DNA from: Dehalococcoidia bacterium
GTDB lineage: Bacteria; Chloroflexota; Dehalococcoidia; Lucifugimonadales; UBA2985
DNA length: 64,000 bases
Reading direction: 5' to 3'
Assembly (NCBI GenBank): GCA_965219025.1
Contig: OZ244716.1
Coordinates: 7,812-71,811 of the forward strand
Under the pieces are notes generated by a model. It was not told the DNA's origin, searched no databases, and saw nothing but the letters and a program-made list of their open reading frames with translations. Shown here piece by piece: positions 60,096-61,176 of the stretch; position 1 is the stretch's first letter; the number at the start of each line of letters is the position of its first letter. A program made the position numbers and the translations under genes.

Positions 60096-60179
60096 GTGAT
60101 CTGGTGGTGCCGCCCGCCTTACCCCATAATAATGGAGCGTCCAAGATATGGAGAGCCATATCAACGAGGCTTGACCAAA

Positions 60180-60983
60180 CTATCCAAAGATGCGATTGGC
60201 ATCAACATCAAAACCCGCGCTCTTCAGTTCCCTGAAAAGGCTCGTTTTCCAACCTTCTGACTCGTTGAACTCAATGTAAACCACGCCAGAGTAATCCGAT
60301 GGAATCTCTGGCGTGGCCTTTACCAAGGCACAAACCCTGTCTCGACCATATTTTCCGATAAAGTACCCAAGCTCAAAGATTGCGTTTTGCCTTGCCCGGG
60401 GTTGTAGATCATCGCCCTGAGGCCCACCCACATCATCAGGTGTAAGTAGAGCTATAGCGAAGTCCACCTCAGCCCACCTCTCAAATTTCTCGATCACCGT
60501 TAGGCCTTGAGAAGCTTGATCTTGCAATACCACTGGTTCAAGACCCAACTCTCTAAGTAAGCCCGTGACTGCGTTTCTTGTTCCGTAATCTCTGCCATGG
60601 ATTATGAAAACACGGTTTGTGTTGGACTGCCTGCTGTCCCTAGGCTCAGGCAACGGTGGTTCGGGATCGTCATCCCAATACTCCTCAACTTCATCAAGCA
60701 GAGACTGAAGTAGCGCATCGGCAGACTCCAAGCCGCTGTCGTACGCTTGTTGATGCATAAAGTCAGACCTGCGCCCCGAGACAATAAACGAAAAGAATCG
60801 TATTTCATTGAACTTCTCAACTTGATCAGAAGACTCTCCAAAGGCGTTCCTAATGGCGACTTCAGTGTCCCTTTGCCACTTCTTGAACTGGACAGATTCA
60901 ATACTCAGCTTCTTCAATTCGGGTATTTGGTTCAGCTGCCTCTGAAGGCGCTCTTTAGTGATTTCCTTATTTCGTTTGGGCAT
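60180..60983 (-). CDS. TIR-like nucleotide-binding domain protein (Cap12/PycTIR-type TIR, COG4271) with unknown N-terminal helical domain
   Basis: VFIIHGRD, LEPVVL, TVIEKFE, FAIALLTPDD, RARQNAIFELG, EIPSDYSGVVY; AT-rich relative to flanks. Confidence 0.85.
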   Translation of the reverse strand: MPKRNKEITKERLQRQLNQIPELKKLSIESVQFKKWQRDTEVAIRNAFGESSDQVEKFNEIRFFSFIVSGRRSDFMHQQAYDSGLESADALLQSLLDEVEEYWDDDPEPPLPEPRDSRQSNTNRVFIIHGRDYGTRNAVTGLLRELGLEPVVLQDQASQGLTVIEKFERWAEVDFAIALLTPDDVGGPQGDDLQPRARQNAIFELGYFIGKYGRDRVCALVKATPEIPSDYSGVVYIEFNESEGWKTSLFRELKSAGFDVDANRIFG

Positions 60984-61176
60984 AAGACTCACTCAGATCA
61001 AGCAATTCACGAGAGGCATGCGTTTGATGAGGCCTAGCTGATGCTTTGGCCCCTAGATTCCCTACACTATACGCATTGTAGGTCGCGACCTTCGTAAGAG
61101 GCAAGCCTTTGCCTCAACCTGTCTTGGTCTTATCACGCCCTTCAAGCGGTAAGGCTTGCCAGTCCTACGTCACCGC

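Follow-up and report, generated by a model that had tools for sequence, protein, structure and literature searches.

A horizontally acquired TIR effector gene of the candidate defence family PDC-S35 downstream of herA in a Dehalococcoidia bacterium, and its variable N-terminal domain as a candidate immune recognition module

The DNA analysed here, called the window, is a stretch of 64,000 nucleotides from a Dehalococcoidia bacterium (Chloroflexota; positions 7,812 to 71,811 of the forward strand of contig OZ244716.1, assembly GCA_965219025.1). The subject of this work is a gene on its minus strand, directly downstream of herA, that encodes a small helical N-terminal domain (hereafter the N-domain) joined through a linker to a TIR domain. 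We hold with high confidence that this gene codes for a horizontally acquired, defence-type TIR effector of the PDC-S35 family, and we lean slightly towards the narrower reading of a self-contained, single-gene anti-phage NAD+ glycohydrolase (NADase) of this family, acting by abortive infection and having the N-domain as its specificity module. The gene and its parts are the following:

60180..60983, minus strand: TIR gene of the PDC-S35 family, an open reading frame (ORF) of 267 amino acids (aa) from the ATG, stop codon at 60180-60182, made up of N-domain, linker and TIR domain
60669..60983, minus strand: N-domain, aa 1-105, a helical bundle by AlphaFold2 (AF2) prediction, proposed as specificity or regulatory module
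60621..60668, minus strand: linker, aa 106-121, disordered and variable, with a recombination breakpoint at its start
60183..60620, minus strand: TIR domain of the Cap12/PycTIR type, aa 122-267, from PF10137, Foldseek and profile matches
60372..60374, minus strand: codon of Glu204 (NAIFELG), the catalytic-position Glu by its invariance and its alignment with Cap12

The ORF list also offers an alternative in-frame GTG at 60992, three codons 5' of the ATG, from which the protein would have 270 aa. In the numbering of this longer form the Pfam profile PF10137 (CAP12-PCTIR_TIR) covers aa 127-243, equivalent to aa 124-240 of the 267-aa protein, with an E-value of 8.4e-36 and 123 bits against a gathering cut-off of 24.7, and with positions 1-118 of the 119 of the profile aligned. 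The AF2 model of the full-length protein (pLDDT 77) consists of the helical N-domain, a disordered linker (aa 107-120, pLDDT below 50) and a TIR fold, and its best Foldseek matches in the Protein Data Bank (PDB) are the TIR domains of the TIR-STING filaments 9lmq and 7un8 (E 2e-5), followed by other TIRs, including those of SPARTA and SARM1. A profile search against PDB chains likewise paired the TIR domain with Cap12 and PycTIR chains, the latter at positions 156-277 of 8jsj. The glutamate of the motif QNAIFELG, Glu204, is unchanged in all 27 homologs aligned and pairs in the profile alignment with the FEFG glutamate of the Cap12 chains 9lmq and 7un8. An earlier reading of the letters and their ORFs, here the first-pass annotation, had described a Cap12/PycTIR-type TIR with a glutamate at the catalytic position, and both parts of that description held. 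TIRs of the Cap12/PycTIR type, as well as other TIRs, are NADases that become active when oligomerisation brings TIR domains together. From the established work on Cap12, PycTIR and other TIR NADases we infer that the window TIR is also an NAD+ glycohydrolase, in which Glu204 would take the catalytic position by analogy with those enzymes.

Among the PADLOC-DB models, the CBASS (cyclic oligonucleotide-based anti-phage signalling system) 'Effector TIR' and the PycTIR models match the TIR part alone, whereas PDLC05005, of the family PDC-S35, matches the protein at full length (E 2.8e-78, aa 14-268 in the 270-aa numbering against positions 5-262 of a model of 264). Four further PDC-S35 models score between 1e-42 and 1e-68. 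The PDC set comprises 145 untested 'phage defence candidates', which were picked for their occurrence inside defence systems already known (Payne et al. 2024, bioRxiv 10.1101/2024.01.29.577857). Our literature search met the name PDC-S35 in no paper, and it is absent from the main text and the examined supplements of that article; for TIR genes embedded in type III restriction-modification (R-M) operons, or for single-gene Cap12-type TIR systems, the search returned nothing specific. The family is large: more than 6800 homologs at E ≤ 1e-3 were found among 8000 candidates scored, nearly all of them of about 265-275 aa, and PDC-S35 homologs align end to end at 50-85% identity, with the same two-domain architecture and length in thousands of proteins. 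In a collection of species-representative genomes, 571 of the 599 matched stretches encode a relative of the window protein, and relatives occur in Chloroflexota, Binatota, Latescibacterota, Nitrospirota, Acidobacteriota, Pseudomonadota, Spirochaetota and Gemmatimonadota, as well as in two archaea. As expected for a single-gene candidate of this family, the window gene is the only gene of its cassette, and the only neighbours that recur over 80 loci from other genomes, described below, are type III mod/res genes (25 of 80) and other independent defence genes. The first-pass annotation had proposed a candidate one-gene defence system. The full-length match and the linkage of the family to defence uphold this proposal; its novelty does not stand, as the window gene is a further member of a family that PADLOC already lists in these terms.

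The gene fills a cassette of low GC content between tfoX and herA, whose features and surroundings are:

60104..61172, no strand: low-GC cassette of about 1.07 kb, marked by the drop in GC and filling the tfoX|herA intergenic site
61075..61104, minus strand: promoter-like site TTGCCT-18-TACAAT (9/12 in a consensus scan), inside the cassette and upstream of the TIR gene
61177..62808, minus strand: herA, with DUF87 and HAS-barrel domains; context only, outside the system
62811-63404, minus strand: gene of 197 aa with no Pfam match, between nurA and herA
63395 to beyond 64000, minus strand: nurA, first gene of a three-gene operon
59739..60095, minus strand: gene with a TfoX N-terminal domain (PF04993, TfoX_N); context only, followed by purD, purE and purB

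GC is 0.47-0.52 over approximately 60000-61200 against 0.62-0.69 on either side (about 0.49 for the cassette against about 0.65), so that the sharply AT-richer insert reported earlier, directly downstream of herA and on the same strand, was recovered. The cassette contains no integrase, and its two ends fall at the tfoX start and the herA stop. The promoter-like site is weak evidence, with two such sites in the region against 0.8 expected by chance. The window genome is a single contig of 2.15 Mb, 95% complete, and the TIR gene is its sole PF10137 gene.

The tfoX|herA junction was read in four genomes of the same genus. Two of them (G002 and G003) carry at this place a segment of about 565 bp with a SnoaL gene (PF07366) of host GC, and the other two (G004 and G005) have a spacer of 154 bp that keeps recognisable ends of the SnoaL segment and is a remnant of it. 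Junction coordinates outside the window are 3136-3701 in L088, 919-1492 in L091, 1342-1496 in L089 and 3131-3285 in L090. The genomes that lack the TIR gene share a conserved motif, GCGATTATATCACACGGC, upstream, on the side of the herA stop; the window does not have it. The three closest homologs of the window gene sit at exactly the same site in related metagenome contigs, in the order nurA, 197-aa gene, herA, TIR, tfoX, purD; they are 85%, 75% and 72% identical to the window protein, and their TIR genes have a GC of 0.486 each against about 0.64 for their own loci. In a maximum-likelihood tree the herA-site alleles form one clade (support 100/100), sister to Dehalococcoidia copies. Since these alleles are a single clade and the site is polymorphic in the genus, the cassette entered the lineage once, being now present in some lineages of the genus and not in others. 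Of 41 related genomes, 11 have relatives of the family, which lie elsewhere and share only 34-61% identity. As judged from its low GC, from the SnoaL gene or its remnant at the site elsewhere in the genus, and from the patchy distribution of the family, the window TIR gene is horizontally acquired.

The position of the gene, directly downstream of herA on the same strand and with no terminator-like site predicted between them, admits a reading in which the TIR gene is tied to the upstream nurA/herA operon and HerA serves as scaffold or activator, as in Sir2-HerA or DUF4297-HerA; the three further alleles at the same place are in line with it. The three genes nurA, 197-aa gene and herA form an operon with touching or overlapping ends, which is kept in all eight same-genus genomes and in the related contigs. 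This operon matches the host in GC and is surrounded by sel, pur and his genes, whereas the cassette has a promoter-like site of its own. In the eight same-genus genomes herA is retained at 81-99% identity, with or without the TIR gene, the site in G002-G005 holding instead the SnoaL gene or the 154-bp remnant. We also examined 80 loci of homologs from other genomes, in which ORFs were called naively as the longest ORFs and then clustered, and in these other taxa herA, nurA or tfoX homologs lie near the TIR gene in 0 of 80. Because herA is kept without the TIR gene within the genus, and none of the 80 loci has herA, nurA or tfoX, the adjacency to herA is positional rather than functional. We reject the functional link to herA/nurA on these comparative grounds and grant it next to no credence.

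In the same 80 loci, two proteins recur as neighbours of the TIR gene: a protein of about 860 aa with an N6_N4_Mtase domain (PF01555), mostly directly upstream and on the same strand, and a protein of about 950 aa with a ResIII domain (PF04851), downstream. Together the two form a mod/res operon of type III-like make-up that encloses the TIR gene. One or both lie within 10 kb in 25 of the 80 loci, both in 20 and neither in 55, and in 7 of the 15 embedded loci that have a full-length TIR ORF there is a 4-nt overlap between the mod stop and the TIR start. Other inserts in the mod/res operons are an AAA_15/AAA_21 ATPase with a 193-aa partner, MNT/HepT pairs and Fic/DUF4172. The ATPase (about 480 aa) and the 193-aa protein, which has no Pfam match, form a second nested pair in L017, L026, L030, L036 and L038 (for instance at 10832-12857 of L030), and loci of Rhodothermales show a recurrent protein of 460 aa, also with no Pfam match (6067-7449 of L044); both are probably further embedded defence modules. 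Where mod/res is lacking, the pair of genes closest to the TIR gene on either side gives PADLOC matches to AbiEi/AbiEii, SoFic, type I specificity subunits, methylases and other PDCs, in a tally of 150 solo-locus neighbours that is qualitative and supports no quantitative enrichment figure. The first-pass annotation had named the neighbourhoods of homologs as a check on its defence reading, and these loci come out on its side: by gene content, the PDC-S35 family is strongly linked to defence genes. In the naive calls, L042, L070, L078 and L074 have TIR ORFs of 802, 487, 386 and 357 aa, either artefacts of upstream in-frame starts in high-GC DNA or real extensions.

This nesting gives rise to the main rival of the self-contained reading, according to which the protein is a PrrC-like guard or back-up of R-M: the N-domain would dock on type III Mod or Res, and the TIR would fire when a phage anti-restriction function disables the R-M system. 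It draws on the 25 loci where the TIR gene has Mod-like and/or ResIII genes around it in the same orientation, on the 4-nt overlaps, and on the fact that PDC families are defined by such embedding. The window copy would then be an orphan without R-M partner, inactive or working with an unlinked methylase. However, the 55 loci without such genes within 10 kb speak against it, as do the embedded and solo copies, which are intermixed on the maximum-likelihood tree with at least three switches forced by well-supported branches. A tblastn search of the window genome with Mod, Res, the AAA_15 ATPase and the two unknown embedded proteins gave only weak methylase matches (26% identity) and no homolog of the ResIII protein of the embedded type. 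Moreover, the alleles at the herA site have persisted as a clade of solo copies and are under purifying selection, and the same N-domain is fused to other effectors, as described below. We consider this guard function unlikely.

The same neighbourhoods bear on a role outside defence, either as a selfish toxin-like or addiction gene or as a TIR-like housekeeping or regulatory enzyme that processes nucleotides. Nucleoside 2-deoxyribosyltransferase/DNPH1-like enzymes do appear in the fold search, at weak E-values of 0.02-0.2, and some copies adjoin integrases (cluster c7). In that cluster (L068, L073 and L080, from Alphaproteobacteria and Acidobacteriota) a gene judged by eye to be tyrosine-recombinase-like lies directly downstream of the TIR gene, suggesting that some TIR copies travel on integrative elements. 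The repeated, strong linkage with R-M, Abi, Fic and MNT/HepT genes, the patchy distribution with foreign composition, and a modular swapping of effectors that is typical of immune proteins make a non-defence role very improbable.

The remaining half of the protein, the N-domain, belongs to no Pfam family, the best match being SduA_C with E 0.016, below the cut-off of that family. Modelled alone from 32 sequences, AF2 gave it a pLDDT of 87 and a pTM of 0.79, with helices at 6-18, 20-23, 31-48, 53-59 and 72-102. Foldseek searches with this model retrieved nothing significant from the PDB, with the STING and PycTIR structures included (best E 0.42, generic four-helix bundles), nor from BFVD (best E 0.33, generic helical bundles), and tblastn against 50,697 phage records found no match. 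A helical N-domain of about 105 aa that is neither STING nor a domain binding cyclic nucleotide monophosphates (cNMP) had been proposed from the letters, and the model and searches agree with this.

Having in mind the kinship of the TIR with Cap12 and PycTIR, an orphan second-messenger effector has to be considered, of the kind found in CBASS, Pycsar, Thoeris or type III CRISPR, whose N-domain would bind a nucleotide made by an unlinked enzyme. The TIR subtype is that of Cap12 and PycTIR, PycTIR has the same order of N-terminal sensor and C-terminal TIR, and the alternative effectors described below (TIR, PNP, membrane-spanning, nuclease-like) resemble the effector sets of signalling systems. 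Yet searches of the whole 2.15-Mb genome with PF18144 (SMODS, for cGAS/DncV-like nucleotidyltransferases, CD-NTases) and PF00211 (class III cyclases of the PycC type) gave no match at E up to 0.1, and no cyclase-like family recurs among the neighbours in the 80 loci. No ThsA (SIR2/SLOG or transmembrane/Macro) occurs in the locus, flanked as it is by herA and tfoX, no genome-wide ThsA search having been made. The first-pass annotation had seen no cyclase nearby, and with these two profiles there is none in the entire genome, which makes unlikely its alternative suggestion that the effector listens to a distant cyclase. Nor does the N-domain resemble STING, the PycTIR N-domain, SAVED, CARF or any PDB entry, that is, any known ligand-binding fold; its hypervariability fits a conserved small ligand poorly, and the two NCBIfam Cap12 equivalogs score 38 and 33 bits on the window protein against a cut-off of 450. 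Taken together, a second-messenger function appears quite improbable.

Direct evidence on how the N-domain evolves came from the closest allele, L097, at the same site. Between the window and L097, herA, tfoX and purD are 98-100% identical, yet the TIR protein is just 85% identical, and the difference is confined to one block:

60668..61170, no strand: mosaic block (5' intergenic region and N-domain codons), differing from L097 at about 30% of positions

Within these 503 bp there are 150 differing positions, as against 4 in 59700-60667 and 1-2 in 61171-61375. The block takes in everything between the cassette edge next to herA and codon ~105, the 5' intergenic region included. The N-domains are 63% identical (dN 0.23, dS 1.16, omega ~0.2), whereas from codon 105 to the end the TIR half shows 1 nucleotide difference in 489. 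On this sequence pattern, the mosaic block is an allelic replacement by recombination with an old, still-functional allele, whose breakpoint (60668) falls at the domain boundary. A similar imbalance holds in the family, where in 99.3% of 7140 pairs from 120 homologs the TIR is the better conserved of the two halves (mean identity 0.67 versus 0.48 for the N-domain), and 36 of these pairs, from a database clustered at 90% identity, combine a TIR identity of at least 0.9 with an N-domain identity of at most 0.75, for example TIR 1.0 with N 0.63-0.69. A few pairs are opposite, such as N 0.99 with TIR 0.77; as discordant pairs exist in both directions, the two halves have been reassorted both ways. 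Variability, measured as entropy, peaks at aa 51-80, which also vary in length, and in the linker (entropy 2.9).

The N-domain is also found outside PDC-S35. Its profile matched 1647 representative proteins at E ≤ 1e-3 among 1.84 billion. Beside the form of about 270 aa with a Cap12-type TIR, there are others in which it is fused to a TIR_2, ThsB-like domain (P0148, P0220 and P0224, the last with a weak PADLOC spbK match, E 2e-4), in others to PNP_UDP_1 (P0206, resembling PDC-M60C and the CBASS 'PN-superfamily' effector), to AbiJ_NTD4 (P0198, PDC-S32-like), to hydrophobic, apparently membrane-spanning segments (P0192 and P0265) or to a C-terminus with no assigned family (P0240). Tandem N-N-TIR proteins with a Cap12-type TIR exist (P0123, P0147, P0152 and P0180), in which the duplicated putative sensor module may broaden recognition, and P0093 shows the last helix of an extra N-domain at its N-terminus. 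In the phage family PHROG 29450, positions 6-104 match the N-domain and positions 144-240 match proteins with a DpnII-MboI REase domain (PF18742), two halves that suggest a form with N-domain and nuclease in prophages, though no individual protein combining both was seen. Proteins with the DpnII-MboI REase domain are encoded at 1348-1839 (minus strand) of L101, beside AbiEi/AbiEii-like ORFs, and at 29-1333 (plus strand) of L102; PHROG 29450 has matches in the E. coli control genome as well. Finally, stand-alone N-domain ORFs of 116-122 aa, without TIR, are present in seven species of another genus of the same phylum, and could be remnants, decoys or regulators. One lies at 1480-1830 (minus strand) of L103, between a gene for a large secreted-looking protein and an oxidoreductase-like gene, and others are in L105-L110.

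A small, non-enzymatic, all-helical domain carried by many effectors, with stand-alone and tandem copies, matches the general description of the effector-associated domains (EADs), small helical non-enzymatic domains joined to effectors (Kaur, Burroughs, Iyer and Aravind 2020, PMC7159879). The N-domain could on this model be a homotypic adaptor that recruits the TIR to a core sensor protein bearing the same domain. The second copy that defines such a pair was not found: an hmmsearch with the N-domain profile against the six-frame translation of the window genome (E up to 10) retrieved the gene itself only, and none of the non-TIR neighbour proteins in the 80 loci has the domain. The homotypic adaptor fails this defining test, and we attach very little weight to it.

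Returning to the self-contained abortive-infection NADase, its working could be as follows. In the resting cell the N-domain would hold the TIR domains apart or inactive. On infection, it would recognise a phage-derived protein or a state caused by the phage, and the triggered protein would oligomerise like the Cap12/PycTIR TIRs, forming composite NADase sites; NAD+ would be depleted and the infected cell would cease to support phage growth. The hypervariable aa 51-80 would be the likely recognition surface, and an allele exchange of the block of promoter and N-domain would change specificity, with the catalytic half kept. We thus infer for the N-domain a double role, control of TIR assembly and sensing of a phage protein or an infection state. 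That it is a direct sensor, one of the two options of the first-pass annotation, is favoured, indirectly, by the mosaic alleles, by its faster evolution than that of the TIR and by its fusion to alternative effectors. The lack of a signalling partner, with no SMODS or Guanylate_cyc match and no second N-domain in the genome searches, argues for the self-contained option.

Several points weigh on the other side. PDC-S35 itself is only a predicted candidate family. The window TIR shares only about 20-25% identity with Cap12/PycTIR in fold alignments, so that the NADase activity is extrapolated. The N-domain may be less constrained rather than diversifying, its overall omega of about 0.2 indicating purifying selection, and the clustering of the homolog database enriches it for pairs with one diverged half, as counted above. 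Equally, hypervariability in a helical domain would suit a role in oligomerisation or autoinhibition, or one as a target of phage inhibitors.

A wider proposal, which we put forward tentatively and hold somewhat short of probable, is that the N-domain is an undescribed, widespread immune recognition module that senses phage proteins directly, is plugged on interchangeable killing domains (Cap12-type TIR, canonical TIR, PNP, AbiJ-like, membrane-spanning and, probably, DpnII-like nuclease) and is re-targeted by exchange of the block of promoter and N-domain. If so, the window and L097 alleles, with identical TIR and N-domains 63% identical, would constitute a ready-made natural specificity-swap experiment. 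What is new here is an N-domain without known relative, hypervariable, recombining as a block and common to several effector types, together with a polymorphic herA|tfoX site. The module, which has no name yet, appears to be very common in prokaryotic immunity, and its fusions span five or six kinds of effector at the least. Should the N-domain prove to sense phages directly, it would join STING, SAVED, CARF, NLR repeats and others as a new recognition domain, and would account for how a whole group of single-gene TIR, PNP and membrane effectors is triggered. As a possible new module of immune recognition it is thus a good candidate, and one open to direct testing. Layered defence, in which restriction would act before NAD+ depletion, could also be tested on its TIR fusions, which are frequently nested in type III R-M operons.

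We compared the window protein with the known systems that it resembles. With Cap12 (TIR-STING) of CBASS and PycTIR of Pycsar it shares the TIR subfamily (PF10137) and the Glu motif, its closest structures being 9lmq, 7un8 and 8jsj, and these proteins are, by analogy, the source of its likely chemistry and of an activation based on oligomerisation. Unlike Cap12, it has no STING or other cyclic-oligonucleotide-binding domain, its putative sensor half being an unrelated helical bundle, and its genome has no CD-NTase. The cNMP-sensing N-domain of PycTIR is lacking as well: the PADLOC PycTIR model and 8jsj match the TIR part only, the N-domain model misses 8jsj, and there is no PycC. Thoeris differs in its ThsA, which is absent from the window locus, a one-gene cassette flanked by herA and tfoX. 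Sir2-HerA and DUF4297-HerA are conserved pairs of effector and HerA, whereas herA occurs without the TIR gene in several same-genus genomes and none of the 80 other loci has HerA.

Like the EADs, the N-domain is small, helical, non-enzymatic and carried by interchangeable effector domains; unlike them, it lacks a cognate counterpart on a core component, whether in the operon or in the rest of the genome. PrrC and other restriction-linked effectors are likewise nested between methylase and restriction genes, often with translational coupling, an arrangement present in about 30% of PDC-S35 loci; however, PrrC is an anticodon nuclease in a type Ic operon, the PDC-S35 loci combine type III genes with a TIR, and the window copy has no R-M partner. 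SpbK of Bacillus subtilis is a single-gene TIR NADase triggered by the SPbeta portal protein YonE (PMC12847820). As a one-gene abortive-infection protein whose non-TIR part recognises a phage protein directly, it is the model proposed for the window protein, although it belongs to another TIR subfamily with no sequence match, and the likeness is by analogy only.

The closest known counterpart is PDC-S35 itself, a family that is only a prediction. The window protein fits its model at full length and has the same two-domain architecture as a family embedded in defence operons, whereas the window copy stands alone, not embedded, in a housekeeping neighbourhood at the polymorphic herA|tfoX site.

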